Positions 26,183 to 47,847 of a DNA stretch of 64,000 bases are shown piece after piece. Where the stretch lies: assembly GCA_945872795.1 (NCBI GenBank), contig CAMCAZ010000010.1, forward strand, positions 2,135 to 66,134. Direction: 5' to 3'. The notes beneath the pieces are model-generated. The model saw only the letters and a list, made by a program, of their open reading frames with translations. It was not told where the DNA came from and searched no databases. The position numbers and the translations under genes were made by a program. Within the stretch, counting starts at the first letter, position 1, and the number at the start of each line of letters is the position of its first letter. Source of the DNA: Chryseobacterium gleum (GTDB lineage Bacteria > Bacteroidota > Bacteroidia > Flavobacteriales_F > PHOS-HE28).

Positions 26183-27997
<1,815 letters not shown>

Positions 27998-28003
<6 letters not shown>

Positions 28004-28169
28004 TGTCGCAACCCGTAAGTTCCTTAACCATCTCCGCCCCTCTTTCACCTTCCTGCCGCGTTGGAACATTTTGTCGTAGCGCCCGCTACGCCGTGCATGT
28101 TCCGCCTTGCATGAAGGCGAAATAGTGGCAGACCTTCAGTTAACCAACTTACGGGTTGCGACACTAGGC
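27998..28169. repeat. perfect 24-bp inverted repeat (GCCTAGTGTCGCAACCCGTAAGTT / AACTTACGGGTTGCGACACTAGGC) flanking a 124-bp spacer; left arm overlaps the typA stop codon
   Basis: Reverse complement checked base by base; weaker match continues in the flanks (CTTAACC vs GTTAACC). Confidence 0.8.
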
Positions 28170-28188
28170 TTCTTCGGTCCATGATCCT

Positions 28189-30474: not shown

Positions 30475-33400
30475 TCAGTTCGCCCCATAGCGGGGATCTT
30501 GTTTCCACGGGAGCTTCTCCATGTGTTCCACGCTCAGGGAGCAGTGCCCGAATTCCTCCTCCACCTTGCCCGTGAGGCGATAGACGCCGCGCCCCCGGAA
30601 CGGATACTTCGCCTCCACATTGGGGAACTGCGTGCTGTCCCAGAAATCACCTGCCGGGTCGATGAAACTGCCGAAGCTCATGCGTTCCCCGGTGCCGGTC
30701 CGCGTGGGCTTCACGTGCACCACATAACCCAGCATGGTCACCGTGCGGCCGTTATGGGCAGGCATATCGCGGGCCAATATCACAGGAGGTGTGATGTGTG
30801 AAGTGTTTGGTGTGAACTGTGAAGTGGTCGCATTCCCATCGCGCCTTCGCGAAGCCTTCGGTGAAGCGAGGTCATCCGTTTGTCCGATCACCTGTTCGTC
30901 CGATCCGCCCTTGACCAGTAGGAAGGGATCGCACAGCGGGAAGCCGAGCAGTTCCAGTTCGTCATAGGCATCGCTGAGGTCGAAGTGCTGGAGTTCTGGC
31001 AGCTTCGTTTGCGGAGTTTTGGTGATGAAGAGGTCGACGCTGCGCTCGATGGCCTTCGCGCCGGGATGCAGCAGCGTGAGGTCCCACAGCAGCTCGGGTT
31101 TGCTCTTTCCGGTGAAGCGGAAGGCTCCCACGCGGATCAGCATGCGGGCCTGTTCCACGCCGATGGACACGCGGCGCAACAGGTCGGGGAGGTCGGCGAA
31201 GGGGCCGTGACGGCGGCGGTCCGTGAGGATGCGTTCCACCGTGGCGGAGTCCAGGGATCTGATGTTCCGGAGACCGAGATAGATGCTGGCCTTTAGCCGT
31301 GGGCTACTGGCTTCTGGCCGATCATCGGAACGGCCAGAAGCCAGCGGCCAAGGGCCAGCAGCGTGCAACGTGCAGAGCTCCCCGCTCCGGTCCACGCACG
31401 GTGCCTCGATCACCGCCCCGGCGCGTTTCGCCTCGTGCAGGTAGAACTCCGTGTGGTAGAAGCCGCCGAAGTTGTTCGCCACGGCCACCATGAACTCCAG
31501 CGGGTGGTAGGCCTTCAGGTAGAGGCTCTGATAGCTCTCCACCGCATAGCTGGCGCTGTGGCCCTTCGCGAAGCTGTAGCCGGCGAAGCTCTCGATCTGC
31601 CGCCAGATCTCGGCGCTCTCCTCCGCCGGGTAGCCCTTCTTCATGCAGTTGTCGAAGAAGCGCTCCTTCACGCGTTGGAACTCCTCCCGGCTGCGGTACT
31701 TGCCACTCATGCCGCGACGCAGGATGTCGGCCTCGGCCAGCGTGAGCCCCGCATACAGGTGCGCCACCTTGATCACGTCCTCCTGATAGACCATCACTCC
31801 GTAGGTGTCGGGCATGATCTTCAGCATCGCCGGGTGCGCCTGCTTGCGCCGTTCGGGATCGCGGTGCCGCAGGATGTACTCGCGCATCATGCCGCTCTGC
31901 GACACACCGGGTCGGATGATGCTGCTCGCCGCCACCAAGGTCAGGTAGTCCTGCACGCCCAGCTTCTTCAGCAGCATCCTCATGGCCGGGCTCTCCACAT
32001 AGAAGCAGCCGATGGTGTCGCCGGTGCGAAGGAGTTCGTTGATCTTCGGATCGTGCTTGAAGCGTTCGATGGCGTGAATATCGATCAGGGGTCGACCCAG
32101 TGGGTCGACGGTACGGGTGCTTCGACCATACGTAAGCGCCATCACTGCACCCGTTCCGATCGCCGTTTCAGGTTCCGGCTCGCTGGCCATCTGTGATGAG
32201 GTGCAATTCCCATTTTCTGATCGTCTGATCATCTGATCATCTGATCCGCATTCCACGAGCTCCACCGCATCCCGTATATGCCCCAGGCCCCGCTGGCTGA
32301 GGATGTCGAACTTATACAGCCCCAGGTCCTCGGCCTCGAGCATGCTGAACTGCGTGGTGGCGAAGCCCTTCGGCGGTAGGTGCAGCGCGGTGTAGTGGGT
32401 GAGGGGCTGCTCGCTGATCAGCACGCCGCCGACGTGGATGCTCAGGTGGTGCGGATGCTCATGGAAGTGCTCCGCGTAACGCAGGATGGTGCGGGCGATG
32501 CGTTCGTTGTCGATCTCCACGCTGCCGCCGTTCGAGGCCTTCGCGTTGTCGCCGCGCCCGATCCAGCGCGAGTGACCCGCATCCCCTTCGGCGAGCGCGT
32601 CGATGTCCGCCGGCGGAAGGCCGAAGACCTTGCCCAGTTCGCGCACCACGGCGCGGCGCTGGTACGTGCTGTACGTGGCGAGCAGCGCGACCCTGCGCTG
32701 TGCACCGTAGGTGTCGAAGAGGTACTGCGTTACCTGGTCACGGTCCTTCCAACTGAAGTCCAGGTCGAAGTCGGGCGGGCTGCTCCGGCTGGGGTTGATG
32801 AAGCGCTCAAAGTAGAGGTCGAGCTCGATGGGGTCCACGTCGGTGATGCCCAGGCAATAGGCCACCAAGCTGTTGGCGCCACTGCCGCGCCCCACGTGGA
32901 AGAAGCCCTTGCGCTTCGCGAAGCGGATCAGGTCCCAGTTGATCAGGAAGTAGCTCACGAAGTCCTTCTGGGCGATCACGGTGAGTTCGCGATCCATACG
33001 GTCCATCACCTTCTGCGAAGGTGCGGGATAGCGGCGAAGCAACCCCGCCTGGGTCTCCGTGCGCAGCAGTTCGAGGTCCGCTGAAGCATCATTGCTCCAG
33101 GTCCTCCGGTTCTTGCTCTTGCCATGGGCGAAGTGCACATCGCACTGGTCCATCAGGCGGCGCGTGTTCCACACCAGCTCGGGCACATCGGCGAAGGCGG
33201 TGCACACCTGCTCCTCGCTCAGGAAGCGGTTCTCCGGTACTGAGACATGTGCTGTCGGTGTGGTGCTCAGCAGGGTGTTGGTGTCCACCGCACGTTTCAA
33301 GCGGTGCACGTTGAAGTCGCGTTTGCCCAAGGGCACATCACTGTGGAAGGTGGCTGTGACCAGGGCGAGCAGCTTCTCTTTGCGTGCCATCCACGGCGAG

Positions 33401-33825
33401 AAGCGCAGGCGGTTCACATCGCCCGACCGCACGCCGATGAACTCGTTGGGGCGCAGTTTGGCCGGAATGTTCACGGCACCGTACAGGTAGATGATGAAGG
33501 CGTCCGGAAGTTCCGGTGCTTGTTCAGGAAGCGCGTTGCCGTCCAGCAACCGGTCCGTCAGCAGGGAGGCCAGCTGCTGCACTCCTGCGTTGTTCCGCGC
33601 GATGCCGATGTACAGCGTTCGTGCCCCCACTTTGAACTCGATCCCCGCCAAGGGCCGCACCTTGTATTTGTCCGCCAGCCGGAACAGGTCGCTCCAGCCC
33701 GCCGTGCAGTTGATGTCGGTGAGCGCCACCTGCTGAAGCCCCAGGTCGTGCACCTCCTGCAGCACCTGCTCGGGCGAGAGCACGCCGTGGTTGAGGCTGA
33801 ACCAGCTGTGGACGTTGAGGAGCAC
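30475..33825 (-). CDS. dnaE2: DNA polymerase III alpha-subunit family, error-prone DnaE2-like (1116 aa) with a 53-aa in-frame insertion
   Basis: N-terminal PHP domain, polymerase core motifs (GRGSGANSLVAYCLGITDVDP, FDLDF), OB-fold C-terminus. Length and N-terminus fit DnaE2 better than replicative DnaE. Confidence 0.75.
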   Translation of the reverse strand: MLLNVHSWFSLNHGVLSPEQVLQEVHDLGLQQVALTDINCTAGWSDLFRLADKYKVRPLAGIEFKVGARTLYIGIARNNAGVQQLASLLTDRLLDGNALPEQAPELPDAFIIYLYGAVNIPAKLRPNEFIGVRSGDVNRLRFSPWMARKEKLLALVTATFHSDVPLGKRDFNVHRLKRAVDTNTLLSTTPTAHVSVPENRFLSEEQVCTAFADVPELVWNTRRLMDQCDVHFAHGKSKNRRTWSNDASADLELLRTETQAGLLRRYPAPSQKVMDRMDRELTVIAQKDFVSYFLINWDLIRFAKRKGFFHVGRGSGANSLVAYCLGITDVDPIELDLYFERFINPSRSSPPDFDLDFSWKDRDQVTQYLFDTYGAQRRVALLATYSTYQRRAVVRELGKVFGLPPADIDALAEGDAGHSRWIGRGDNAKASNGGSVEIDNERIARTILRYAEHFHEHPHHLSIHVGGVLISEQPLTHYTALHLPPKGFATTQFSMLEAEDLGLYKFDILSQRGLGHIRDAVELVECGSDDQMIRRSENGNCTSSQMASEPEPETAIGTGAVMALTYGRSTRTVDPLGRPLIDIHAIERFKHDPKINELLRTGDTIGCFYVESPAMRMLLKKLGVQDYLTLVAASSIIRPGVSQSGMMREYILRHRDPERRKQAHPAMLKIMPDTYGVMVYQEDVIKVAHLYAGLTLAEADILRRGMSGKYRSREEFQRVKERFFDNCMKKGYPAEESAEIWRQIESFAGYSFAKGHSASYAVESYQSLYLKAYHPLEFMVAVANNFGGFYHTEFYLHEAKRAGAVIEAPCVDRSGELCTLHAAGPWPLASGRSDDRPEASSPRLKASIYLGLRNIRSLDSATVERILTDRRRHGPFADLPDLLRRVSIGVEQARMLIRVGAFRFTGKSKPELLWDLTLLHPGAKAIERSVDLFITKTPQTKLPELQHFDLSDAYDELELLGFPLCDPFLLVKGGSDEQVIGQTDDLASPKASRRRDGNATTSQFTPNTSHITPPVILARDMPAHNGRTVTMLGYVVHVKPTRTGTGERMSFGSFIDPAGDFWDSTQFPNVEAKYPFRGRGVYRLTGKVEEEFGHCSLSVEHMEKLPWKQDPRYGAN
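32089..32247. repeat. 159-bp interspersed repeat (copy A) inserted in-frame inside dnaE2
   Basis: GGTCGACCCAGTGGGTCGAC palindrome, ACGGGTGCTTCGACC block, CCATTTTCTGATCGTCTGATCATCTGATCATCTGATCC tail. Related copy at 46674-46795 and partial copies at 43408-43559. Confidence 0.8.
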
Positions 33826-33891
33826 GGATCATAGATCGACAGGATATACGTCGATCTGTTGATCATAAGGTAAGCGATCGACACTGCTGGC

Positions 33892-36800
33892 TTACAGCAC
33901 CAATCGATCATCCTCCCCCTCCCGGTCGAAGAACAAGTGGTCCGGGTCGAGCAAGACCTCCAAGGGCTTCAGGGACGTGGTGATGTGAACGTGGTTCTTC
34001 CCGCTGAGCGAACGTACCCGTTGCTTCACCTCTTTACCGCCTTCCACCCGTACACTGACATCGATCCAGTCGTTCATCGGCACCTCCGTTTCCTTTCCCG
34101 AGGGATCGGCATGGAGCTTCGCGCAGGTGATGGAAGCGGTAACGGTCCACGACCCATCCGTATGCTGTACGGCCGAGGCGGAGGACAGTGCGTTCCTGTG
34201 GAAGGTGATCTGCTCCAGACCATCCACCAACAGGTAGTGCAGACTGTCCGGGGTCACGGCCTCCAACGCGCGATACAGGTCAAGCGTGGTGGGGTAGGGG
34301 GCTTCACCGAAAGCGAAGGAATCCACCATCGATCGATAAGCGGAATTCACCTGTTCCTCGCCGATCAGGTCTCGCAGGGCATACATCACCACACTGCCTT
34401 TGTTGTAGTGGATGTACTGCTGGTCCTCCACCCGCATCAGCGGCAATTCCCCAATGCCTTCCTGTCCCCGACCGCGTAGGTAGTTGTCGCGCTCGTACTT
34501 CAGGAAGCGGCGCATCGCCTTGCGACCATACTCCTTCTCCATCACCATGAGCGCGGTGTATTGCGCCATGCTCTCCACGAGCATGGTGGATCCCTGCATG
34601 CGCGGCCCCAGCACCTGGTGGCCCCACCATTGATGGGCCACCTCGTGCGCCACCACGTAGTAGACCATGTCGATGCGGCTGGTGTCGCGCAGGTCGGTGA
34701 TGAAGCCGATGGCCTCGCTGTACGGCATGGTGCCCGGGAAGGATTGCGCGAAGCGGCGGTACCTGGGGAACTCGATGATGCGGGCCACCTCATGCTGATA
34801 GGGGCCGAATTCGGTGGAGGCATAGCTCAGTGCGTCACGCATGGCCTTCAACATGCGCGGAACGTTCGTGCCGTGCTCCGGATGGTGGTACACCTCCAAG
34901 GTGACCGGGCCGGCCTGCTCACGGGCCACTTGATAGCGCGCGCTCAGCACCGCCCAGAAGTTGAAGATGGGTGCCTGGCAGACGTAGCGGTACCAGCGTT
35001 TTCCATCCGCCGTCCAGTCCTTCACCAGGGTCCCCGGTGCGATACCGATCTGGTCCGGTGCGGTGCCGATGGTACAGGCGAAGCGGATGCGGTCGGCATG
35101 GTCCATGGTCTCGTTCGTGGCACGGTCACGCGGATCATCGCTCAAGGGTGCGGTGCGCGGTCGCACCGGTAGGCCGGCCTTTCGACGTTCGCCCGGTTCG
35201 GACAGCTCCACTTGGTCCTGGTAGCCGATCATGGGCAACAGGTCCATCGTGTTCAAGAAGGTCCCGTTCTCCACCAATGACAGGAACTCCACATCGTTCG
35301 TGAAGCCCTTGGGCGCCCATTCCCCGGTGACCACGACCCGTACGGAGTCGCCGGTGCTGAGGGAGCGATCCAAGCGGAACATCCGCTGGAAACGGGCGCT
35401 ATCGTTCAGCACCAAGCGGGCGCTCGGCACCTCGAAGCTCATGTGCATGTGATCGGGCAGGCTGAACCACAACGTATCCACCGGAGCGTCACCCTTGTTG
35501 GTGAGCATCATCTCAGCCGTGTATCGGATGCTGCGTTCCTCGGGCTCAAGCTCCACGGTGATATCCACGGCGGTGAAGTGTGGAAGAGCGGTGTTGGTGA
35601 AGCGCTTGTAGGTCCGTTCGTAGTCGACCTGGAGCGCCTCCGTATCCTGTTCGGTGACCGGTCGGTTCAGGATACGGGTGTTGTAGAAGCCGATGAGCAG
35701 CAACACGACCCACGCGCCGAATGCCAGAGCTCCCGTTCTCCAGGATCGCTTCCATCGGATCCCCGCGATGCGCCAGCGCCAACCCCAAGTGGTCTCACCA
35801 CCGCGCACCACGAAGAGCGAGGCGATGAAGAGCAGGCACACAGCGAAGGCGAGCCAGTAGGCCCGGAAGAACGTCCAGGGCATCATAAATGGACCGAAGC
35901 CGTTCATGTCCGAGTACAGCAGCCGAGGTCCGCCATAGAACACCAGTAGGTTGGACTCCACCTTCAGGAAGCGCCAGATCAGCGTGTTCACAGCGAAGAG
36001 CACGACGAACAGGCCGAAACCGACGTACTTATGGTGAACGAGCGTTTGGATGGTCAAGGCCACCATGGACCAGAACGCGAACGCGATGACGCCGGGCAGG
36101 ATGAAGCCCAGCAGGTAGGTCACGGGCTGGTTGTCGGTGTAGCCCTGCGCCAGTTGACCGATCACCCCGATCACGGCCATGAGTGTGAGGACGAACGCCC
36201 CGACAAGGATGAGCGTGCTGAGCTTGGCCAACAGGGGGAATGAGGTGCGCACAGGAAGCGCGTTCATGATCCCCTCCAGGCCGGCATCGCGATCACGCCA
36301 CAGGAGTTCACCGCTGTAGAAGGTGATCAGCACCATCACGAACAACATGGACATGCCCCGCAGCATCTCGGCCACGTGGTAGGTCACCGGCCAGCTGTGG
36401 TTGCCGAAGGCCGAGGTCACTTCGCTCAGGCTGATGGCGGTCATCAGTAGGCCGAGGCCAGTGATGATCCAGAACACGGGTGAGCCGAGAATGCCACGCA
36501 GATCGGAACCTATCAAAGCAAAGAAGCGCCTCCACTGGGATGTCCACCCATAGTGGAGTTGGATGTTCGGGAGCGTCTTATCCGCTCCGGAGTGCAGCGC
36601 TTCGTCAGCGACCTTGAGGTGACCGGGTCGCCGCCGTTCGGTGAACGTGAAGCGGAGGTACCCCACAAGGAAGATCACCGCTGCGATCCCCAGCCAGAGA
36701 AAGCGATTCCAGATGAGGGCGCCGCTCAATGGGAGCAGGGCGCTGTTCCGTTCATCCACGCTCCAGTAGCGCGTCACTTCATCCAGTGCCTGGTTGGCGA

Positions 36801-37428
36801 AAGGGTCCAAGAGCGCGGCAAGCAGACCATTGTCCACTTCCGTGGAATAGGCCGTGGCGATCACGTTGAGCACGACCAGGGCTATGGACGTGACGAACGC
36901 CGCTGCCGCCGAGCGTACCACGGTGGCCACCGCGAACATCACCGCGCTTTGGAAGAGGATGCTGGTCACCGCGAACAAGAGGAAGGTCTGCGCATGGACC
37001 ATCGGATCGTTCGGACCGAAGCGGATGGGGTCGCCCGAAGGGATCCAACTGCCGACGATGAGGCCCGCGGAGATCCCCAGCGTTGGGATGAGGGCCACCA
37101 CGGTGCTGCCCAGGAAGCGGCCCAGCACGTACTGGCGTTTACTGACCACCGTGCTGAACACGATGTCCGAGGTATGGTGTGCGAAATCGCGGATCGCGGT
37201 GGCGTTCACGAACGCCGTGACCATGGGGAGCCAAAGGAAGGCCAGGTTGGCATAGAGCTCATAGACGTGTGAGGGCGAGTTCACGTGCACCATCCCCGGG
37301 CTACCCTTGCCGCCGCTCTCGAACACCGCCAGTAAGCAGGCGAATGTGAAGGCCATGCCGAGGAAGATCCACAGCTGGGGTTGACGCAGCCAGAAGCGGA
37401 GCTCGAAGTGGATGAGGCGTGTGATCAT
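33892..37428 (-). CDS. fusion protein: N-terminal ABC-2-type permease (multi-TM) and C-terminal M1 zinc aminopeptidase domain (paralog 2)
   Basis: ~550-aa polytopic N-terminus; C-terminal gluzincin motif VVAHEVAHQWWGHQV…E (Glu at +20 rather than the canonical +19) and GxMEN-like region; paralogous to 37599-41210. Confidence 0.75.
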   Translation of the reverse strand: MITRLIHFELRFWLRQPQLWIFLGMAFTFACLLAVFESGGKGSPGMVHVNSPSHVYELYANLAFLWLPMVTAFVNATAIRDFAHHTSDIVFSTVVSKRQYVLGRFLGSTVVALIPTLGISAGLIVGSWIPSGDPIRFGPNDPMVHAQTFLLFAVTSILFQSAVMFAVATVVRSAAAAFVTSIALVVLNVIATAYSTEVDNGLLAALLDPFANQALDEVTRYWSVDERNSALLPLSGALIWNRFLWLGIAAVIFLVGYLRFTFTERRRPGHLKVADEALHSGADKTLPNIQLHYGWTSQWRRFFALIGSDLRGILGSPVFWIITGLGLLMTAISLSEVTSAFGNHSWPVTYHVAEMLRGMSMLFVMVLITFYSGELLWRDRDAGLEGIMNALPVRTSFPLLAKLSTLILVGAFVLTLMAVIGVIGQLAQGYTDNQPVTYLLGFILPGVIAFAFWSMVALTIQTLVHHKYVGFGLFVVLFAVNTLIWRFLKVESNLLVFYGGPRLLYSDMNGFGPFMMPWTFFRAYWLAFAVCLLFIASLFVVRGGETTWGWRWRIAGIRWKRSWRTGALAFGAWVVLLLIGFYNTRILNRPVTEQDTEALQVDYERTYKRFTNTALPHFTAVDITVELEPEERSIRYTAEMMLTNKGDAPVDTLWFSLPDHMHMSFEVPSARLVLNDSARFQRMFRLDRSLSTGDSVRVVVTGEWAPKGFTNDVEFLSLVENGTFLNTMDLLPMIGYQDQVELSEPGERRKAGLPVRPRTAPLSDDPRDRATNETMDHADRIRFACTIGTAPDQIGIAPGTLVKDWTADGKRWYRYVCQAPIFNFWAVLSARYQVAREQAGPVTLEVYHHPEHGTNVPRMLKAMRDALSYASTEFGPYQHEVARIIEFPRYRRFAQSFPGTMPYSEAIGFITDLRDTSRIDMVYYVVAHEVAHQWWGHQVLGPRMQGSTMLVESMAQYTALMVMEKEYGRKAMRRFLKYERDNYLRGRGQEGIGELPLMRVEDQQYIHYNKGSVVMYALRDLIGEEQVNSAYRSMVDSFAFGEAPYPTTLDLYRALEAVTPDSLHYLLVDGLEQITFHRNALSSASAVQHTDGSWTVTASITCAKLHADPSGKETEVPMNDWIDVSVRVEGGKEVKQRVRSLSGKNHVHITTSLKPLEVLLDPDHLFFDREGEDDRLVL

Positions 37429-37598
37429 TCAACGCGTGATGAAGCGAAAGCGACCCAATAACGAACGCGATCGAACAGGGAATGCGCAACGGCCCGTTCC
37501 GTTACGGACGCATCCCCGTTCGACCGATCAAGGCCGCAACCACTGGACGACCGACCTCATTCAACTTCCAATCACCGATCGTTCCGATCGACCGTTCC

Positions 37599-40500
37599 TC
37601 ACTCCACCTCCACCTTCTTCACATTGTCCTGCATCACGCGATCGAAGAACAGGTTGTCGCGGTCGATCACGGCCTGCATGGGTTTCTCCTGTACGATGAA
37701 GGTCAGCTTGTTCACACCCGAGCGCAGGCGCAGCCGTTGGTGTACGAGCGGCACCTCGTTCAGCGACTTGTCCGCCTTCCTTCCCAGCTTTGGGTAGCGC
37801 AGGATGCTGACGTCCATCCAGTCGTTCATGGGAGCTGGTGTCTCGCGACCGAGGGAATCGGCATAGTTCTTCTCACCGAAGAGTTCGAGCGTCACTTCGT
37901 AGGTGCTGTCCGGCAACATGCGGGCGCTGGCCTTGTCCACCCGGTTGTTGTAAAGCGTGATCCGTTTGAAGCCATCGATCAGCAGGTACTCCAGGCTATC
38001 AGGTACCACCTGCTCCAGTTCGCGGTACATGTCCAGCGCGGTGGGGTATGGCGGCTCCGCATAAGCGAAGGTGTCCACCAGCGCCTTGAAGGCCCTGTTC
38101 AGGTTCTCCTCGCCCACGAAGTCGCGCAGGCCGTAGAGCACCACGCTCGCCTTGTTGTAGTGCACGTACGGCTGGTTCTCCACCTCCATCAGGGGCACCT
38201 CCTTCAGCTCCTCGGTGCCGCGTGCACGCTGGTACCGGTCGCTCTCCAGCTTCAGGAACTTGCGCATCTGCGCCCGGCCGTACTCGTCCTCCATCACCAT
38301 CAGGGCACTGTACTGGGACATGCTCTCGCTGAGGAGGGTGCTGCCCTGCATGTCGGCGCCGATCACTTGGTGGGCCCACCACTGGTGCCCCATCTCGTGC
38401 GCCACCACGTAGAACACCATGTCGATGTCGGTGGTGTCGCGCAGGTCGGCGATGAAACCGATGGACTCGCTGTAGGGCATGGTGCCCGGGAAGGCCTGGG
38501 CGAAGCTGAAGTACCGGGGGAACTCGATGATGCGCGCCTGCTTGTGGCGGTAGGGGCCGAAGTTGTCGCTGTAGTACTGGAGCGACTTGCGGATGCTGTT
38601 CGCCATGCGCGGCACGTTCTCGGCGTGGTCCGCGTGGTAATAGACCTCCACGTCCACACTCTGCCCTGAGCCTGTCGAAGGGTGCCACTTCTCACGGTGC
38701 ACCGCGTAGTCGGCGCTCATGAACGAGTAGAAGTTCATGCTCGGATGGTCCACCACGTACTCGAAATAGCGTTTGCCGTTCTCCGTCCACTCGCGCTTCA
38801 GGCTGCCCGGTGCGATGGCGATCTGGTCGGGCGTGGTGCTGATCACGGTGCGCACGGTCACCCAGTCACTGTTCGGCACCAGGTAGGTCTGCATGCGCGC
38901 TGCGCTATCGGCTGAGAGGCGCGGCATGCGCTCCTTCGCAGGAAGCCCGCGGTCCTTACGCTCGCTCTTGTCCTGCAGTTCGCCTCCGGCCGAGTAGCCG
39001 ATGCCGGGCAGCAGGTCCATGTTGTTGAAGAAGGTGCCGTTGTGGTTCAGTTGCGCCACGCGGGGCTCGTTCTCGAAGCCCTTCTCCACGTGGGTGGCGG
39101 TGACGGTGAAGCGTAGGTCCTCGCCGGGCATCAGGGGCCTGGCGAGCTTGTAGATGCGGTAGTTCACGCGCTCGTCGTTCAGCACTAGTTGAGCGCCGGG
39201 CAGGTCCACCTCCTGCTCGATGCCGCCGCCGCCCATGTTCAGGTGCAGCGAGTCGATCGGAGCGTTGCCCTTGTTGTGCACGGTGACCTCCGCCACGGCG
39301 TGCAGGCTGCGCTCGGCGGGTACCAGGTCGATGGTGAAGCGGATGTCGGTGTAGTGCGGCTGCAGCATGCCCTCGTACCGCTTGTAGGTGCGCTCGTAGT
39401 ATTCCAGGTCGTCCTCCATGGTGGAGGCATCGGGCATCTCGTTCAGCACCTTGGTATTGTAGTAACCCCAGGCGCCGAGCAGCACCCAGGCGGAGAGGGC
39501 GGGGATGGCGTATCGCTTGTTGGTGCGCAGGCGGCCCCCGGCGATGGCCAGTCGCTTGCGGAAATGTGTTTCCCGGCCGCGCACCCAGAAGAGCAGCGTG
39601 ATCACGAGCAGCACGGCGGAAAAGGCCCACCAATAGGCCTTGAACCACAGCCAGCCCGTGAGCGCCGTGCCATAAGTGTTCATGTCGCTGTAGCTGAGGT
39701 TCGGCGCGCTGTTGAACTGCACCAGGTGGCTCGTGACCTTGAGCGCCGGCCACAGGATGAGGTTCACGGCCAGCACCACGAGGAACACCGCATAGCCCAC
39801 GTACTTGTTATTCACCAGCACGTGGCAGAGGAACGAGAGCGCGGCCAGCGCCCCGAAGCCCAGCAGGCCGGGCACGATGTAGTAGCCGAGGTAGACACCC
39901 GGCTCGATGCGCGTGTAGCCGTTGATGAGCTGGAAGACCATGCCCCCCAGCGCAGTGACCAGCAATACGGTGAGCAGCAACAGCAGCAATGCCGTGTACT
40001 TCGCCAGCAGCCCGATGCCCAGCGGCAGCGGCGTGGCGTCATGCACCTCGTCCAGCTTGGGCTCGCGCTCTTTCCACACCAGCAGCCCGCTGTAGAAGAC
40101 GATGAGGATGGTGGTGAAGAGACCGAAGCCCCCTTCGATGACGTCGATGACGTTGTAGGTGACCGGGTGTATGGTGTTCTCGTAGAGCGAGGTGCTGAAC
40201 GAGAGGTTGAGGAACATGTTGAGCAGCCCTATGCCGGTGACGAGCAGGAAGGCCACGCCGCGGGTCATGCCGGTATAGTCGTTCCACGCAATGCGGCGGA
40301 ACTGCCGGATGCGCGCCACGGCGCCGTGGCTGCGATCCACCCGGGGCAGGGGCACGGCTGCTGGGGCCGCGACGGGACTCACGGCGGGCTCGGCCAGGGG
40401 CGCACGCTGCCGCCGGTCGGTGAAGCTGAAGCGCCAGTAGCCGAAGGCGAAGATGCCGGCGGCGACCGCGGTCCAAAGGATGCGGTTCCACAGCAGCACA

Positions 40501-41210
40501 CCGCTCATCGGCAGCAGCAGCGTGTTCTTGTCGTCCACGGTCCAGTAGCGGGTGATATAGCTGAATGCGGTGCTGCCGAAGGGGTCCAGGAGCGAGGCCA
40601 GCACCTGGTTCTCCATCTCGGTCATGAGCGAGCCGGCCACGCCGCTGCCCACCATGATGAGCACGGCCGTGATGAAGGCCGCCGCCGTGCTGCGCACCAG
40701 TACGGCCACCGCGAAGATCACGGCAGCGCTGAAGACGATGTTGGGCAGGGTGAGGTATAGGTAGGCCTGCAGGTGCGCGCCCATCAGGTTGGGGCCGATC
40801 TTCTCGGGATCGAGCCACCACATCCAGCTGCCCACCACGATGCCGAGCGACACCCCCAGCATGGGCAGGCTGGCGACGAAGGTGCTACCCAGGAAACGGC
40901 TCAGCAGGTAGTGCCGCTTCTTCAGCGGGGTGCTGAACATGATCTGCTGCGTGTTGTACGTGAAGTCGCGGATGGCGCTCGCGTTCACGAAGGCGGTGAC
41001 CATCAGCAGCCCGAAGAAGGCCAGGGTGGCATAGTAGACGAACACCTTGTAGGGCGCGTTGTACTTCACGTTGGCCAGTTCGGCACCCACCTGCACCTCG
41101 TCGATCACCAGGCTCAGGTAGCTCAGCAGGGCGAAGAGCAGCAGGAAGATGTACGCCATGGGCTGCCTCAGCCAATGGCGCAGTTCGATGAGGAGGAGCC
41201 GCCAGGTCAT
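37599..41210 (-). CDS. fusion protein: N-terminal ABC-2-type permease and C-terminal M1 zinc aminopeptidase domain (paralog 1); start overlaps the ATPase gene stop (ATGA)
   Basis: Same architecture; VVAHEMGHQWWAHQV…E; 4-nt overlap with upstream ABC ATPase gene indicates translational coupling. Confidence 0.75.
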   Translation of the reverse strand: MTWRLLLIELRHWLRQPMAYIFLLLFALLSYLSLVIDEVQVGAELANVKYNAPYKVFVYYATLAFFGLLMVTAFVNASAIRDFTYNTQQIMFSTPLKKRHYLLSRFLGSTFVASLPMLGVSLGIVVGSWMWWLDPEKIGPNLMGAHLQAYLYLTLPNIVFSAAVIFAVAVLVRSTAAAFITAVLIMVGSGVAGSLMTEMENQVLASLLDPFGSTAFSYITRYWTVDDKNTLLLPMSGVLLWNRILWTAVAAGIFAFGYWRFSFTDRRQRAPLAEPAVSPVAAPAAVPLPRVDRSHGAVARIRQFRRIAWNDYTGMTRGVAFLLVTGIGLLNMFLNLSFSTSLYENTIHPVTYNVIDVIEGGFGLFTTILIVFYSGLLVWKEREPKLDEVHDATPLPLGIGLLAKYTALLLLLLTVLLVTALGGMVFQLINGYTRIEPGVYLGYYIVPGLLGFGALAALSFLCHVLVNNKYVGYAVFLVVLAVNLILWPALKVTSHLVQFNSAPNLSYSDMNTYGTALTGWLWFKAYWWAFSAVLLVITLLFWVRGRETHFRKRLAIAGGRLRTNKRYAIPALSAWVLLGAWGYYNTKVLNEMPDASTMEDDLEYYERTYKRYEGMLQPHYTDIRFTIDLVPAERSLHAVAEVTVHNKGNAPIDSLHLNMGGGGIEQEVDLPGAQLVLNDERVNYRIYKLARPLMPGEDLRFTVTATHVEKGFENEPRVAQLNHNGTFFNNMDLLPGIGYSAGGELQDKSERKDRGLPAKERMPRLSADSAARMQTYLVPNSDWVTVRTVISTTPDQIAIAPGSLKREWTENGKRYFEYVVDHPSMNFYSFMSADYAVHREKWHPSTGSGQSVDVEVYYHADHAENVPRMANSIRKSLQYYSDNFGPYRHKQARIIEFPRYFSFAQAFPGTMPYSESIGFIADLRDTTDIDMVFYVVAHEMGHQWWAHQVIGADMQGSTLLSESMSQYSALMVMEDEYGRAQMRKFLKLESDRYQRARGTEELKEVPLMEVENQPYVHYNKASVVLYGLRDFVGEENLNRAFKALVDTFAYAEPPYPTALDMYRELEQVVPDSLEYLLIDGFKRITLYNNRVDKASARMLPDSTYEVTLELFGEKNYADSLGRETPAPMNDWMDVSILRYPKLGRKADKSLNEVPLVHQRLRLRSGVNKLTFIVQEKPMQAVIDRDNLFFDRVMQDNVKKVEVE

Positions 41211-42094
41211 GCCGCCACGGTGTTGGGGGTGTCCAGGATGCGGCTGAAGAAGACGTCCTCCAGCCCGGGCTCGGCCGCAGTGAAGCCGTCGCCCGGGGGC
41301 GTGTCGCTGAGGATGTGGATGGAGGGCCGCCCACTGATGAGCTTGTTGCTGATCACATGGTATCGGGCATGGTGATCCTCCAGCTCGGCCTTGGCGATGC
41401 TCTTCTCCCAGATGCGGCCCTTCACCTCGCGCAGCGCATCGTTCGGCGATCCGGCGAACAGCAGGCGTCCCTTGTTGATGATGGCCATGTTGCGGCAGAG
41501 TTCCTGCACGTCCTGTACGATGTGGGTGCTGAGGATCACCACCACGTTCTCGCCGATCTCCGTGAGCAGGTTGTAGAAGCGGTTTCGCTCGCCGGGGTCG
41601 AGGCCGGCAGTGGGTTCGTCAACGATGATGAGCTTGGGTTCGCCGATCAGCGATTGGGCGATGCCGAAGCGCTGCTTCATGCCTCCACTGAATCCGGCAA
41701 TGCGGCGCTTGCGGTGCTCCCACAGGTTCACCTTCTGCAGCAGCGCCTCCACCAGGTCCTTCCGCTGGCCGTTGTTGATCACCCCCTTCAACAGGGCGAT
41801 GTGGTCGAGCATCTGGTAGGCGCTCACCCGCGGGTACACCCCGAACTCCTGTGGCAGGTAGCCGAGCACCTTCCGCACCTCGTCCTTCTGGCGCAGCACA
41901 TCGATGTTCCCGAGCATCACCGTGCCGGCATCGGCCTCCTGCAGCGTGGCCAGGATCCGCATGAGCGAGCTCTTGCCCGCACCGTTGGGACCCAGCAGGC
42001 CGAACATGCCGGTGGGGATGGTGAGGGTGACGTTGTCCAGCGCCTTCACGCCATTGGCGTAGGTCTTGCTGAGGCCGTTGATGACAAGTTCCAT
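41207..42094 (-). CDS. ABC transporter ATP-binding protein
   Basis: Walker A GPNGAGKSS, Q-loop, signature LSGGMKQR, Walker B IIVDEPTAGLD, H-loop. Confidence 0.9.
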   Translation of the reverse strand: MELVINGLSKTYANGVKALDNVTLTIPTGMFGLLGPNGAGKSSLMRILATLQEADAGTVMLGNIDVLRQKDEVRKVLGYLPQEFGVYPRVSAYQMLDHIALLKGVINNGQRKDLVEALLQKVNLWEHRKRRIAGFSGGMKQRFGIAQSLIGEPKLIIVDEPTAGLDPGERNRFYNLLTEIGENVVVILSTHIVQDVQELCRNMAIINKGRLLFAGSPNDALREVKGRIWEKSIAKAELEDHHARYHVISNKLISGRPSIHILSDTPPGDGFTAAEPGLEDVFFSRILDTPNTVAA

Positions 42095-42248
42095 GTGGGG
42101 TGTCGGAAATTATGCTCGCAAGATGCACAGGGAAGTGCCAACCTGATGCTCGAATACATGAGCGGTCGGGAGGGTCGGACGGGCGGTGGTCGGACAGGTA
42201 GCCTGCCTGTCCGCAGACAAACCGCCGACGCGGGAAACGCGGGGTATA

Positions 42249-43161
42249 TCACTCCTCCCCGAAGAAGTCGCTGTCGATGCGCTTCACAGCGTAGGTGCGC
42301 TGGGTGGTGACGCCGAGATCGTGGTCGATCATCAGTTGGGTGAGCTCCTCACCGTCGAGAAGGACGATCTTGGTCTCGTTGCGGGGTATGTACTCGCGGG
42401 CTTCTTTGCTGAACGAAGAGGTGGTGATGAAGATGCCCTTCTTTGCGCCCTGCCCGGCCAATGCTCCTACGAACTTCTGGATCTCTGGACGGCCCACGGT
42501 GTTGCCGGTATTCCACTTCTTGGCTTGGATGTAGATGATGTCCAGCCCCAGTTTGTCCTCTTTGATGGTGCCGTCGATGCCTTCGTCGCCACCCTTGGTA
42601 AGCGCACGACCTGCGTCCTTCACGGAACCGCCGTATCCCATGCGTACGAGCAGCTGCACCACGAGGCGTTCGAAGTCCATCCAGGTGAGGGATCGGACTT
42701 TTGCGAGGAGTTCTTGGCCGATGGTTTCCCGGATCTGTTCGTATGCACCATCCAGTAATTCTTCCGGTGTGCGCGAGTTGTCCGCGTCGGCGGTCTGGGC
42801 TGAAGGAGTATTATCCCGCTTCATGGTCTGGAACTCCACGAATTCCGGGAAGCGTCTGAGGTAGCCTACGTCGATGCGTTCCGGTTTTTGCTTCAGTATC
42901 TCCAAGCCACGAGGCGTTATCTGCATCATCGCGCGTTTGGGTGAAGCGACCAGACCGGCCTTCTTGAGATACGTACGTGCCCATCCTACGCGGTTGTCGA
43001 ACGCGGCCTGCATACCGCTCTAGCATCTCACGTCGCTCCTCCTCGGTCAGTTTGAACTGTGTGGCCAAGCCCTCCACAACATCACGAAGTGCATGCACCC
43101 TGTTGTCGGATAGATAGCTCAACAAGGGCAACATGATGCTTTGATAATCGGGAACGGCCAT
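42249..43161 (-). pseudogene. mrr: Mrr-family type IV restriction endonuclease, interrupted by a frameshift near 43010
   Basis: Mrr N-terminal winged helix (MAVPDYQSIMLPLLSYLSD…) in one frame (43161-~43010) and Mrr catalytic domain (…NRVGWARTYLKKAGL…GIDG…IYIQAKKW) in another frame (42249-43013). Confidence 0.7.
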
Positions 43162-43407
43162 GATGTGATCGGTTCAGTTGAGAGGGTAAGATCGTTGATC
43201 CATCCGGTTGTTGTGCGTGAGGGATGGTAGCGGCAGCTTGCCGCCGGACCGGCCCAGCAGCGTAAGGAGCGAGGAGGCCCGACGATAGGAGGGACCCCGC
43301 AGCCCGATGCGATGCGGGCCGGGCCAAGGCAACTACAGCGGACAGCCCGACCCCGCGCGCTGGCCGGTGGGAGGAAGGGGGGCACGCCCGAAGGCCAATC
43401 AGACTAT

Positions 43408-43559
43408 GAGAAGATCAGACGATCAGATGATCGCCCGCGCGCATGCCCACCCCAATGCCGATCAAATGGTCACAAGATCCTGGCTGTGGTTCTTCGCTGG
43501 TATGGTCGGCGGCAGGCATTTCCATTTTCTGATCTTCTCATTTTCTGATCGTCTGATCC
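43408..43559. repeat. MITE-like structure: inverted copies of the GATCAGACGATCAGA / TCTGATCGTCTGATC motif flanking ~110 bp
   Basis: 43408-43432 GAGAAGATCAGACGATCAGATGATC and 43523-43559 CATTTTCTGATCTTCTCATTTTCTGATCGTCTGATCC, same motif family as 32208-32247 and 46752-46795. Confidence 0.6.
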
Positions 43560-43564
43560 CCTAT

Positions 43565-43615
43565 GTTCTCCTATTCGCCAACAATACCGGCGCCTGTCCA
43601 TCGAAGGGGCGTTAT
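43565..43615 (-). repeat. orphan copy of the dinB 3' terminus (encodes PFDGQAPVLLANRRT-stop on the minus strand)
   Basis: ~80% identical over ~70 bp to 45391-45460; within the 16 shared codons all 7 nucleotide differences are synonymous. Confidence 0.75.
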
Positions 43616-43740
43616 CACGGCCGCAATGCCGAGCAATAGTTTCGGTTCCGTATTATTGCCATACGAACCAGTGCGGAGGTGCTGTGGCATTAGTCGGGAG
43701 CGCATGGCAGGATTCAGAGCGGTTCGAGAAGCTCTTCGTC

Positions 43741-45381
43741 ATGAAAACCCTTTACACCCTTTTGGCGACCTCGGTGATCCTGAGCACGGATCTCGTGGCA
43801 CAGACGTTCTCGAACACCACAGCAGCTGCCTGCAACACGTGGGATTCGGGGAATGCCTACACGGGTTTTCAACGGACCATCGCAGTGGCCGCCTTGCCTA
43901 CGCCGTTGGGCGCTTCGGGAACGGTCTTGCGCCAAGTGAACCTGCAACTGGGCACTGCGGCGTGCAAAGGCAACCTGTCCACGTACTACGCACGCATCGT
44001 ATCACCTACGGGTACTGTCATCCAGTTGTTCGGGCCGTTCACCACGACGAGCACGAGCCAATGGATGAACATCAAGTTCCGAGATGACATCGCCTTGGAA
44101 CGTGTCCGCGACTACAGCACGACCACGCAACAGGGCTACCACCCGTGGAACGTAGGCTACTGCCGCACGGATGCGGTCAATGCGTTCACCACGGTGAACG
44201 GGGAAGACCCGAACGGCAACTGGACCTTCCAATTGGCTGAGAACACGACATCCGAGGTCTCGTTCCAACGTGTTGAACTCGTCTTCGGGCCACCCATCGT
44301 CGTGACCGATGTGACCGGTGGCTCAGGAAACGATTTCTGCAGCGGGGCCACCTGTATCGATGGATTGTCCGTGATCCGCGGAACGAACCTCGCTTATCCG
44401 CCACTTGATCCCTTTTACCCGGGCGATGTGGTGGGTGGCTGTGGTTGGAACGGTGCGAACAACAATAACGGATGGTACCGCTTCGTCGCATCCGGAACCA
44501 CAGCGAACATCACTGTGAGCGGCATGGTGAACACCACCGGTACAGGCACGGCGGACATGCAACTGGTCGTGGTCCAGCAGACCAACCCCATCTGCTCCGG
44601 TCCTCCGACCCTAGTGCCGACGGGAGGCTGTCCGGACCCCCCCGGTGTGAACAATACATCTTATGCCGCGCCGAACGGTGGTGTTGGTACAATGGCCAAT
44701 GTTTACTTGAACGGGATCACTGCGAATTGCGAGTTCAACCTCTCGGGGCTTACGGCCGGGAACAGCTATTACCTGATCATCGATGGGAACGGTGGTTTGT
44801 CATCCACCTTCTACATCGAGATGCCGAGTGGCGGGATCGACTGCAACATCCTGCTGCCGGTCACGTGGACGGCTTTCAACGTGGAATGCGAGATGGGCAA
44901 CCGGCGGATCTCCTGGACGGTGGCTACCCAGCAGGACAATGATCATTTCGAAGTGGAACGCAGTCTGGACGGCTCCTCTTGGAATGTGTTCGCTACTGTT
45001 CCCGGGGAAGGGACCACGCAAACGACCATGTCCTATGAAGTGCTGGACGACAACAGCGATATGCTCTTCGAACAGCCACTGATCTATTACCGGGTGAAAC
45101 AAGTGGACGTGAACGGGAACTTCAGCTTCACGCCGGTCGAGGCGAGCAGTTGTTCTGTGCTGCTGTACCCCAATCCGGCAAGCGATCACATCATCGTGGC
45201 TGTGCCCTTTGCCGGTGTCGATGTGCAGCTAGTGGATGCCATCGGACGGGTGGTGGAGATGCGCAAGACGCAAGGCACTACCATTCGGATGGACATCGGC
45301 CATCTGGCCTCCGGTTATTATGCGTTGCAGCTCCTCAGTTCTGGTGACCTGCTTGGCTCGGCCGTGGTGGTCAAGTTCTGA
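43741..45381 (+). CDS. secreted protein with proprotein-convertase P-domain-like module and T9SS type-A C-terminal sorting domain
   Basis: Signal peptide MKTLYTLLATSVILS; P-domain-like GEDPNGNWTFQLAENT; C-terminal LLYPNPASDHIIVAVP… CTD. Confidence 0.65.
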   Translation: MKTLYTLLATSVILSTDLVAQTFSNTTAAACNTWDSGNAYTGFQRTIAVAALPTPLGASGTVLRQVNLQLGTAACKGNLSTYYARIVSPTGTVIQLFGPFTTTSTSQWMNIKFRDDIALERVRDYSTTTQQGYHPWNVGYCRTDAVNAFTTVNGEDPNGNWTFQLAENTTSEVSFQRVELVFGPPIVVTDVTGGSGNDFCSGATCIDGLSVIRGTNLAYPPLDPFYPGDVVGGCGWNGANNNNGWYRFVASGTTANITVSGMVNTTGTGTADMQLVVVQQTNPICSGPPTLVPTGGCPDPPGVNNTSYAAPNGGVGTMANVYLNGITANCEFNLSGLTAGNSYYLIIDGNGGLSSTFYIEMPSGGIDCNILLPVTWTAFNVECEMGNRRISWTVATQQDNDHFEVERSLDGSSWNVFATVPGEGTTQTTMSYEVLDDNSDMLFEQPLIYYRVKQVDVNGNFSFTPVEASSCSVLLYPNPASDHIIVAVPFAGVDVQLVDAIGRVVEMRKTQGTTIRMDIGHLASGYYALQLLSSGDLLGSAVVVKF

Positions 45382-45390
45382 ACGGTCAGG

Positions 45391-46638
45391 CTACGTCCTC
45401 CTATTCGCCAACAACACCGGTGCCTGCCCATCAAAAGGGTTGTCCATCCGCCCGATGCTCTTCGCATCCATGCCGGCCGCGCGCATCACGGTGCGGTCGC
45501 CGAAGCGCTTGCGGATCTTGTCCATGGCCTGGTACAGGTCCATGGCCTCCTGCGTGTCGGTGAAGGCATCCATCTGGTGGCCGCCACCCACCAGGTGACT
45601 GAAGCGCACGCCGATCAAGCGGATCCGTTGGCGACGGTCGTACAGCGCGCGGAAGAGGTCGTGTACTGCGGGTAGGATGATGTGGTCGCAGGCCGTGTAG
45701 CCCACGCGCGCTTGTTTGGTGTGCGTGTTGAAATCGGCGTAGCGGATCTTCACCGCGATGCAGCTGGTGAGCTTGTCGCCCTTGCGCAATTGGAAGGCGA
45801 GGCTTTCGGCCATGGCGGTGAGCAGGCCTTTCAGTTTCACCACATCGATGGTATCGCGCTCGAAGGTGCGCTCCGTGCTGATGCTCTTGCGCTCGTGCCA
45901 GGCGATCACCGGACTATCATCGATGCCGTTGGCCTTGCGCCACAGCACAGGCCCGTGCTCGCCCAACAACCGGTGCATCAGGTCCACCTGCAGCTCTTGT
46001 AGCGTGTGGATCTTCGCCACGCCCATGCTGCGCAACAGGTGCGCGGTCTTCTCGCCCACGCCGGGGATGCGTTCTATGGGCATGGGCGCCAGGAAGGGTT
46101 TCTCCGTGCCGCGCTCCACGTACCATTCGCCCGCGCCGTTCTTCGCCTCGCCGGTGGCCACCTTGCTCACCGTCTTGTTGATGCTCAGCCCGAACGAATT
46201 CGGCAGCCCGCTATCCTTGATGATCTTCTGCCGCAGCTCCACCGCCAGCTTCCTGCTGCCGTGGAATTTGTCGGTGCCGCTCAGGTCCACGTAGAATTCG
46301 TCCACGCTGCTCTTCTCGAACAGCGGCACGTTCGCGCGGATGATCTCCGTCACCTCATCGCTCTTCTTCAGGTACGCTCCGCTGTCGCCGCGCAGGATGA
46401 TCGCCTCCGGGCACAACTGCTTGGCCATCTTCATCGGCATCGCGCTGCGCACCCCGAAGGCCCGCGCCTCGTAGCTGCAACTGGCCACCACGCCGCGGTC
46501 GCTGTCGCTCCCGATCAGCACGGGTCTCCCGTTCAGCTTCGGGTTCTCCAGCCGTTCCACGCTCACGAAGAAGGTATTGAGGTCCAGGTGGAGGATGGTT
46601 CGTTCGCCGTTGATCATTCTACATTCTTCATTCATCAT
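45391..46638 (-). CDS. dinB: Y-family DNA polymerase IV
   Basis: Catalytic LDLNTFFVSVE and SVDEFYVD motifs; little-finger domain; 415 aa. Confidence 0.85.
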   Translation of the reverse strand: MMNEECRMINGERTILHLDLNTFFVSVERLENPKLNGRPVLIGSDSDRGVVASCSYEARAFGVRSAMPMKMAKQLCPEAIILRGDSGAYLKKSDEVTEIIRANVPLFEKSSVDEFYVDLSGTDKFHGSRKLAVELRQKIIKDSGLPNSFGLSINKTVSKVATGEAKNGAGEWYVERGTEKPFLAPMPIERIPGVGEKTAHLLRSMGVAKIHTLQELQVDLMHRLLGEHGPVLWRKANGIDDSPVIAWHERKSISTERTFERDTIDVVKLKGLLTAMAESLAFQLRKGDKLTSCIAVKIRYADFNTHTKQARVGYTACDHIILPAVHDLFRALYDRRQRIRLIGVRFSHLVGGGHQMDAFTDTQEAMDLYQAMDKIRKRFGDRTVMRAAGMDAKSIGRMDNPFDGQAPVLLANRRT

Positions 46639-46673
46639 TTTTCATTCCCCCTGCTGCCATCACCACGCTGTTA

Positions 46674-46795
46674 GGTCGACCCAGTGGGCCCGAGGCCTCG
46701 GGCGACACTACGGGTGCTTCGACCCAGATACCTGCATACCATCGTCCACAGGCATTCCCATTATCTGATCGTCTGATCATCTCATTATCTGATCC
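46674..46795. repeat. interspersed repeat copy B (122 bp), 36 bp upstream of the dinB start
   Basis: GGTCGACCCAGTGGG, an added GCCCGAGGCCTCGGGC palindrome, ACGGGTGCTTCGACC, CCCATTATCTGATCGTCTGATCATCTCATTATCTGATCC. Confidence 0.8.
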
Positions 46796-46976
46796 GTAGT
46801 TGGCCGCCTTAACGGGCTGTTCGCTGTAGTCCCGCACGGCCATGCCAGCGGTGGCGGCACTGCGGGGTTCCGCCGTACGGCGGACCTCCTCGTTGCACGC
46901 CCCCACAAGGCCCGGCCGTGCGGGAGCTGCCGCTCCCATCCCTGGCGGAAGATCCCGTCCCACCAACAGTTTCGTG

Positions 46977-47026
46977 TTGACAAAATATCTGTCATGTTGC
47001 AGTCGGTAAATTAGTCATTAGATTTG
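46977..47026 (+). promoter_or_regulatory. candidate operator palindrome TGACA-N7-TGTCA overlapping a Bacteroidetes-type promoter (-7 box TAGATTTG at 47019-47026) for the ORF6N/lexA-like operon
   Basis: Palindrome TTGACAAAATATCTGTCATG at 46977-46996; TAnnTTTG motif ~25 bp before the ORF6N start. Confidence 0.4.
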
Positions 47027-47050
47027 TCCGTCGGATAACTGGTCAACAGA

Positions 47051-47790: not shown

Positions 47791-47847
47791 GACGGTCCTT
47801 CAACCGTCATAGGACATTCCCTTCAACCGTCATAAGACACCCTTCAC
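47781..47847 (+). promoter_or_regulatory. tandem direct repeats (CCTTCAACCGTCATAGGACATTC / CCTTCAACCGTCATAAGACACCC, plus a third CATAAGAC half-site) immediately upstream of the lexA-like start
   Basis: Seen directly in sequence; two ~23-bp units and three CATARGAC cores within 65 bp. Confidence 0.5.

Follow-up and report, generated by a model that had tools for sequence, protein, structure and literature searches.

Octamer-armed foldback repeats in and beside dnaE2 and dinB of uncultured Flavobacteriales

The 64,000-nucleotide stretch analysed here (positions 2,135 to 66,134 of contig CAMCAZ010000010.1, assembly GCA_945872795.1, Chryseobacterium gleum; hereafter the window, numbered from its own first letter) carries short repeats built from tandem octamers of the type GATCAGAN, and all copies in the window lie within or beside dinB and dnaE2. 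These loci are probably copies of a lineage-specific, small, non-coding, interspersed repeat of the repetitive extragenic palindromic (REP) kind or of the MITE kind (miniature inverted-repeat transposable element). The family is a structural variant of REP/MITE-type repeats, with arms made of 8-nt units; it appears to be undescribed and is apparently limited to a clade of uncultured Flavobacteriales.

The octamer pattern TCTGATCNTCTGATC, with at most two mismatches, has 11 matches in the window against 0.44 expected, a count not attained in any of 100 shuffles. Run on the window, an nhmmer profile of 78 arms finds all four loci for which a preliminary description of this DNA had reported a shared tail, as (GATCAGAN)n arrays at 32207-32246 (element A, E-value 2e-13), 46751-46794 (element B, 3e-12), 43397-43436 (left arm of element C, 2e-7) and 43515-43558 (right arm of C, 9e-8). 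The profile also gives a weak, decayed match at 30886-30904, within dnaE2, and no further copy anywhere in the window, the first 28 kb included, as had been described. Elements A and B have 43 bp in common at 93% identity (32206-32248 and 46754-46796) and, outside the low-complexity part, share an exact 15-mer (32090-32104 and 46674-46688) and an exact 16-mer (32112-32127 and 46709-46724) that keep their order and orientation in both elements. Because these stretches are non-repetitive, the similarity of A and B survives masking of the GATC runs.

The family recurs well beyond the window. Across a one-genome-per-species collection (596 Gb), the 20-mer CATTWTCTGATCGTCTGATC matches 76 stretches, 72 of them in 43 metagenome-assembled genomes (MAGs) titled Flavobacteriales or Bacteroidota; within these 72 loci there are 78 matches, with about 2 calculated to occur by chance. 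The remaining four stretches, from Psychrobacter, hold a single conserved coding 20-mer and no arrays and are unrelated. Up to six exact matches occur per MAG, on separate contigs (the window has four to five loci), and the fetched flanks (fetched loci are cited by L numbers) contain extra arrays at about one per 35 kb. The preliminary description would have been refuted by a consensus without further genomic copies and by loci that ceased to align significantly once GATC runs were masked; neither is the case, and the short-repeat family that it proposed is genuine. CATTWTCTGATCGTCTGATC is in no IMG/VR viral contig, which argues against a phage origin, Rfam searches at gathering and permissive thresholds gave no match on the arrays, and none of the papers searched contains GATCAGACGATCAGA.

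Arms, foldbacks and asymmetric elements

Each arm consists of 2 to 12 GATCAGAN octamers (TRF period 8) and ends in AATGG(A/G)AATGCC, with variant units, AATGAGAN or AATTAGAN, that lack GATC. While AATG stands beside the array in all 78 arms by construction of the search pattern, the consensus GAATGCC over the next seven positions holds in 46-79% of them. The complete form is a foldback of 67-190 bp, (GATCAGAN)n-AATGGAATGCC, a variable core and GGCATTCCATT-(NTCTGATC)n, in which the octamer arrays constitute the outer arms. All 29 listed close pairs of arms on opposite strands run forward then reverse, with sharp GATC...GATC ends. Such inverted arms are present in C and in 28 foldbacks of the fetched loci, and the foldbacks yield long hairpins (z -2.2 to -7.4). 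In L063 and L059, a variant unit such as AATTAGAN in one arm is mirrored by one in the other. Neither the sequence nor the length of the core is conserved in the family.

Element C (43397..43558, no strand assigned, folding z -3.4) is a complete foldback of 162 bp. The MITE-like inverted arrangement described for the pair at 43.4-43.6 kb is thereby upheld, with corrected bounds. Its left arm (43397-43436) reads AATCAGAC TATGAGAA GATCAGAC GATCAGAT GATCGCCC, its right arm (43515-43558) reads GGCATTTCCATTT followed by TCTGATCT TCTCATTT TCTGATCG TCTGATC, and a near-identical copy exists in L008. Tandem growth of an arm is seen in L024 (5151-5735), where an octamer arm and its flank are present in four tandem copies 125-145 bp apart that end in a complete foldback.

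Elements A and B, both on the minus strand, adopt an asymmetric form in which a single arm is accompanied by a distinct hairpin, CAYCYGTA(G/C)C-GTCGACCC-NNN-GGGTCGAC, with a conserved stem of 8 bp and a variable loop of 3 nt. In A (32090..32247), delimited by pattern, profile and A/B alignment, four octamers (32246-32215) lead into the inner motif AATGGGAATTGC (32214-32203); then come a spacer that varies and, at 32127-32090, a REP-like module. The hairpin of this module, GTCGACCC-ACT-GGGTCGAC (32091..32109; 8-bp stem, 3-nt loop), follows a GTAC tag (32114-32111) on the minus strand. Element B (46674..46796), in the dinB leader, has its array at 46794-46763, the inner motif AATGGGAATGCC at 46762-46751 and a REP-like module with a GTAG tag at 46724-46674; the additional nested palindrome reported for it lies at 46688-46703.

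The hairpin is found at 13 places in the loci, tagged GTAG in B and five others and GTAC in A and six others. Because six of these 13 places have no array nearby, the 5′ module of A and B constitutes a second, REP-like family. The preliminary description was right that the two elements share this module, and its assignment of the palindrome GGTCGACCC to the octamer family has to be given up. The composite of array and hairpin recurs at three unrelated locations, namely site 1 of DnaE2, the dinB leader and a conserved gene junction in L023, L031, L038, L058 and L073.

In-frame copies in DnaE2 and other proteins

The DnaE2-like open reading frame (ORF) of the window (30475-33825, minus strand, 1116 aa) remains open through element A, which is read in frame as residues GSDDQMIRRSENGN...STRTVDPLGRP of a 53-aa loop. 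The copy placed in dnaE2 by the preliminary description is thus confirmed in its location; it does not disrupt the gene and is an in-frame insertion translated as protein. An AlphaFold model of DnaE2 (predicted template modelling score, pTM, 0.73) gives a predicted local distance difference test (pLDDT) below 50 at residues 528-578, which correspond to element A, and at 825-842 and 975-1010.

Comparison of 114 full-length homologues defines three sites of variable length and filling. Site 1, flanked by GHIRDAVELVE and IDIH, spans 26-114 aa and contains an octamer peptide in 16 homologues; site 2 spans 42-166 aa with an octamer peptide in 19, and site 3 spans 27-92 aa with one in 7. All three loops are empty in some homologues (26-27 aa long at site 1), other fillings are unrelated repeat families with arms of 7-nt arrays, and proteins 83-91% identical to the window DnaE2 carry non-homologous loop fillings. 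At site 2, homology with L083 stops exactly at the site borders, and the window holds there a decayed octamer array (30874..30905, minus strand) translated as GGSDEQVIGQTDD. The corresponding array of L065 is more intact; by this comparison the window array is decaying.

Over more than 100 homologues, the DnaE2 loops at residues 418-438, 528-578, 825-842 and 975-1010 comprise at least three hot spots at which palindromic repeats sit in frame, with fillings from several unrelated families that turn over faster than the protein diverges. Two members of other families lie in the window gene, a foldback at site 3 (31296-31355) with 28-nt arms of 7-nt units, translated as HAAGPWPLASGRSDDRPEASSPRLKAS and kept in L048 and L065, and a (TTCACAC)n array of 7-nt units at site 2 (30789-30826). 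Upstream of the gene, 9 nt before the dnaE2 GTG start, a palindrome GATCGAC-N9-GTCGATC (33834-33856) falls in a 40-bp segment with four GATC sites.

In-frame arrays are also present in arginyl-tRNA synthetase (ArgRS) and in the HsdS C-terminus, and a short array-like stretch in a SufS-like protein is probably another such copy. In every intragenic copy found the GATCAGA strand is the sense strand. Read as sequence, three or more units in reverse orientation place TGA in all three frames, while the forward T-units of A stop two of three frames and leave only the one that reads GSDDQMIRRSENGN; these stop patterns explain why all intragenic copies are in the sense orientation, and imply that copies in genes survive only as stop-free loops, which are of low confidence in the AlphaFold model.

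Gene order around dinB and dnaE2

On the minus strand, dinB (46638-45391) faces the ORF6N gene at 47051-47812 and, beyond it, a repressor gene (47836-48675) that encodes HTH_3 and Peptidase_S24 domains and is lexA-like. In L078 (804-6150), a lexA-like gene and dinB-dnaE2 form one contiguous cassette. In the window this cassette (45391-48675 for its dinB side) is split, with the ORF6N gene between repressor and dinB and about 11.5 kb of ABC transporter/M1 peptidase genes, mrr and a secreted-protein gene before dnaE2; the arrangement of the separating block is common to the window and related MAGs. The window has a G+C content of about 61%, and its encoded proteins include type IX secretion sorting domains, which place it in Bacteroidota.

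Element C, which an Mrr-type endonuclease gene adjoins, occupies the same place as foldbacks that lie directly 3′ of dinB in L014, L021 and L035. Next to it, 55 bp are left over from the 3′ end of dinB (43563-43622, about 85% identical to 45391-45450), and the gene for a protein with a type IX secretion tail (43684-45381) appears to have been inserted into an ancestral junction between dinB and foldback. The preliminary description had the family confined to an accessory stretch and marking a plastic region. That view does not hold, as 28-47 kb is syntenic in L065, L048, L014 and L008, which argues against an accessory island, and other species have orthologous copies at matching positions of dnaE2 and dinB. 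Since the region is syntenic, the L078 cassette is contiguous and foldbacks lie 3′ of dinB in relatives, the window copies, judged from gene order, track the split lexA-like/dinB/dnaE2 cassette of SOS polymerase genes and not an accessory island.

The dinB leader begins with a 90-bp block conserved with L026, after which L026 has one 90-bp foldback and the window 325 bp of mosaic repeats that include B. Within this block (46965-47050), between dinB and ORF6N, TGACA-N7-TGTCA (46978-46994) is a candidate operator or promoter. Upstream of SOS genes, the non-canonical LexA operators of Bacteroidetes are palindromes of the form GGA-N5-TCC or CTAA-N5-TTAG (PMC8565304), and the TGACA palindrome differs from these motifs. 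The arrays themselves do not qualify as LexA-type operators, being direct octamers at many non-SOS loci and differing from the published motifs. At the other end of the leader, an (AATGNAG)n array of another 7-nt repeat family (46614-46647) overlaps the called dinB start, and the first eight called codons, MMNEECRM, probably belong to the repeat and not to DinB. Repeats of this kind can thus mislead gene calling, and the octamer repeats can break assemblies, as in a Logan contig with dinB whose end, about 50 nt upstream of dinB, falls where B begins.

Mobility, alternative explanations and related repeat systems

We infer that the elements multiply by being copied and inserted through an activity supplied in trans; its most plausible source would be an enzyme that works on DNA hairpins, for example a Y1-type or REP-associated tyrosine transposase (RAYT). 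They would be mostly neutral or selfish passengers, with likely side effects in the window: DnaE2 would have gained a loop of 53 aa, the 5′ leader of dinB would hold a structured insert, and a hairpin would stand at the place that in relatives is just 3′ of dinB. Relative to ORF ends, which they abut or overlap, copies are placed at -17 to +10 nt and often give the stop codon. Single intergenic arrays are sense to the adjacent gene in about 12 cases and antisense in about 10, so that RNA-strand bias can be set aside. The occurrence of both orientations, the unconserved cores, the harmless siting and the decaying array at site 2 of DnaE2 together fit a selfish or neutral interspersed repeat.

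Several observations weigh against this interpretation. At 27 of 29 complete elements no flanking direct repeat exceeds shuffled controls, though a 4-bp GATC duplication would be hidden; the check for target-site duplications called for in the preliminary description was thus negative. The check for a cognate transposase likewise returned none in the loci or the window genes scanned: across the window and about 0.65 Mb of loci, no transposase lies between paired arms, and Pfam identifies none among about 30 of the 44 called ORFs of the window. At four loci of the clade, Y1_Tnp genes are flanked by other palindromes, such as GGGCCTTCGGCCC. Many copies are orthologous across several species, so recent mobility lacks direct demonstration, and the scan 20-mer, being derived from the window copies, biases matches to orthologous loci. 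Finally, the modules of A are identical to those of L065 at 119 of 120 positions, compared with about 94% in adjacent coding DNA and 52% in the 40-nt spacer, which hints at constraint or gene conversion and not at free decay.

The two exceptions to the absence of target-site duplication are one orthologous thiolase locus (L040 6465-6561, L068 2986-3091), the only place where the last codons of the gene recur, as a diverged duplicate of about 30 bp, on the flank of a foldback (here at the 3′ end of thiolase). No autonomous element was recognised among arm pairs 0.5-3 kb apart, which hold metabolic genes (L018) or a 23S_rRNA_IVP gene. The latter, which encodes a four-helix bundle, lies within inverted octamer arms at hgd/hppD in L070 (4006-4564) and in L015, L037 and L039, a single orthologous locus and the lone exception to the short non-coding form, with its start codon in the AAAATGG of an arm. 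In form, this arrangement resembles the ORF-bearing intervening sequences of 23S rRNA. A Y1_Tnp gene is present in the clade (L077, 150 aa, E 5e-24), with homologues elsewhere named RayT by JGI, but the flanks of the four such loci (L077, L080, L081, L082) contain neither octamers nor the hairpin of A and B, and a direct link to this gene was rejected. In L077 (2538-3782) and L080 the IS200-like Y1_Tnp gene is inserted between hsdM and hsdS; on its flanks stand direct copies of a repeat rich in palindromes, each of about 110 bp, together with a duplicate of the 3′ end of hsdM.

A broader reading, which we regard as possible though doubtful, makes the octamer-armed elements one of several co-resident families of tandem-unit foldbacks with arms of 7-8-nt units. 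Such families would form a new class, exchanged at a few fixed landing sites without target-site duplication or a classical insertion sequence, their modules being kept by conversion or selection. The landing sites would be the three DnaE2 loops, the dinB leader and gene junctions, and the exchange might be effected by an HUH/Y1 enzyme on single-stranded hairpins or by template switching with gene conversion. If so, a polymerase of SOS mutagenesis would possess hypervariable loops.

Unlikely, though possible and compatible with a mobile origin, is that the foldbacks and hairpins are structures useful to the host, whose role at the RNA or DNA level would be to terminate transcription, stabilise mRNA, provide processing sites or regulate from the leader. 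The hairpins are strong, the elements are placed exactly between genes, B lies between the conserved promoter/operator block and the dinB start, and the modules of A are better conserved than its spacer. One version of this explanation takes the foldback as the 3′ hairpin partner of adjoining small RNA elements resembling Flavo-1, because the order Flavo-1-like motif, GGGGCACGCCC, 7-9 nt and octamer foldback is found beside C and in L018, L019 and L050, and the same junction from GGGGCACGCCC to foldback in L014, L021 and L045, the last with a related GC-rich element upstream. Against host use, single arrays lie in both orientations relative to transcription, copies occur within coding regions (three DnaE2 loops and ArgRS), and the sequence and length of the core are not maintained. 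Moreover, no U-tract follows the foldbacks, true terminators follow some arrays (L010, L049), and the arrays match no Rfam family.

The GC-rich palindromic elements like Flavo-1 RNA are an observation in their own right, lying at 43198-43356 and 46797-46965 of the window and in L018 (1081-1157), L019 (2127-2210), L040 (7777-7860) and L050 (334-448). They are multi-copy and often stand immediately before an octamer foldback. Their Flavo-1 (RF01705) scores are 17 bits at 43198-43356, 34-37 in L018, L019 and L040, and 24.8 in L050, all below the threshold of 42. Their multiple copies raise the question whether Flavo-1 could be a dispersed repeat and not a gene for a small RNA.

We consider it improbable that the GATC octamers are read by a regulator or a Dam/SeqA-like system, perhaps within SOS control of dinB and dnaE2. 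The idea draws on the three to four GATC sites per arm at a fixed spacing of 8 bp (four in A and three each in B, C-left and C-right, as first described), on the clustering of window copies around lexA-like/dinB/dnaE2 genes and on the Mrr-type endonuclease gene next to C. Yet GATC has its expected frequency in the window (514 observed against 504 under a Markov expectation, a ratio of 1.02, hence no enrichment), and three sites per 40 bp are found at several other window places too. The known Bacteroidetes LexA-like repressors bind palindromes, not direct octamers (PMC8565304), a spacing of 8 bp does not keep sites on one helix face by textbook DNA geometry, the variant units lack GATC, and the array at DnaE2 site 2 is decaying. 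Arrays also lie beside many unrelated genes, among them thiolase, ruvX/dapD, hgd/hppD and permeases, and the single intergenic ones do so in either orientation.

Independent local origin, with arrays arising as microsatellite-like slippage products at GATC seeds and no copying between loci, has very little probability. Arms do differ in unit number (2 to 12), tandem amplification has occurred locally in L024 and other, 7-mer arrays occupy the same loops, but this explanation is largely refuted because A and B share unique, non-repetitive modules in the same order, which by the counts are no chance matches. The GAATGCC consensus beside the arrays, the array-REP composite at three unrelated loci and the invariant arrangement of arms also contradict it. 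Least credible of all is phase variation, in which gain or loss of an 8-nt unit would shift the dnaE2 frame and switch the mutagenic polymerase on or off: the tract is tandem and coding and 8 is not a multiple of 3, but the units are not identical, 114 of 114 full-length homologues and all loci seen are in frame, and the same arrays are mostly intergenic.

The interspersed-repeat interpretation is best judged beside known systems. Like REPs, REP doublets (REPINs) and bacterial interspersed mosaic elements (BIMEs), the family comprises small dispersed hairpin repeats at gene borders that form mosaics with other repeat families. REPs also lie inside genes, DnaE2 among them, and their ends donate stop codons (Di Nocera et al., PMC3733652), as seen here, and the second module in the window is a short hairpin that carries a GTAG/GTAC tag on its 5′ side. 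Octamer arms, however, are arrays of 8-nt direct units and not a palindrome of 20-40 bp, about half of the hairpin copies carry GTAC unlike GTAG-tagged REPs, and, in contrast to REPtrons, no RAYT flanked by these repeats was found at the four Y1_Tnp loci. CGTC-tagged REPs have a CGTC tag, an 8-9 bp stem that starts from A/T pairs, a loop of 4-5 nt and a CCA tail (PMC3733652); membership of that group was rejected for the hairpin, whose stem GTCGACCC begins with G-C, whose loop is 3 nt and which lacks the CCA tail. Rickettsia palindromic elements (RPEs) resemble the family by in-frame behaviour only, as palindromic repeats that persist in functional protein genes (PMC3733652); they belong to an unrelated host phylum, are probably unrelated in sequence and have no tandem-unit arms, and the family here is mostly intergenic.

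MITEs share with it a size under about 500 bp, the non-coding nature, inverted ends and several dispersed copies per genome, and differ in that neither a target-site duplication nor a parent insertion sequence was found here in the loci (about 0.65 Mb) and the window. BrickBuilt, a MITE of Porphyromonas gingivalis in the same phylum, is likewise short, non-coding, multi-copy and lineage-restricted and combines tandem repeats with inverted ends (PMC4596501). It has a central array of 23-nt units, small inverted ends and an always intergenic position (PMC4596501), whereas the tandem 8-mers here are themselves the inverted arms. Long inverted arms of short tandem subrepeats around a variable core are known from eukaryotic Foldback transposons, such as Tetris. 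These are of kilobase size and linked to known transposases; the likeness is one of form only. The short tandemly repeated repetitive (STRR) heptamers of cyanobacteria can lie in the gene for RNase P RNA. In the passage of PMC2858038 that draws on Vioque 1997, STRRs are dispersed arrays of 7-nt units that can sit in functional genes, to which the sister families with 7-nt units in the same Flavobacteriales loops may be likened. The present unit differs in having 8 nt with GATC (TRF period 8), its arms are inverted with a fixed inner motif, and the hosts are Bacteroidota and not heterocystous cyanobacteria.

Among bacterial REPs and MITEs, arms built from direct 8-nt units are unusual, and the mobilising enzyme, if found, could reveal a new mode of recognition. 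This unrecognised family resides in abundant, uncultured Flavobacteriales represented by many wastewater and environmental MAGs, where it enlarges and diversifies proteins such as DnaE2 and ArgRS. Repeated colonisation of the loops of an SOS polymerase extends the earlier finding that REPs favour replication and repair genes.

Two other repeats of the window lie at gene junctions. At the bipA/thuA-like junction (27995-28172), an inverted repeat has 34-nt arms, 91% complementary and 110 nt apart, with no copy in the fetched loci. The junction of the ORF6N and lexA-like genes (47778-47846) contains a tandem repeat of 3.2 copies of a 23-nt unit.

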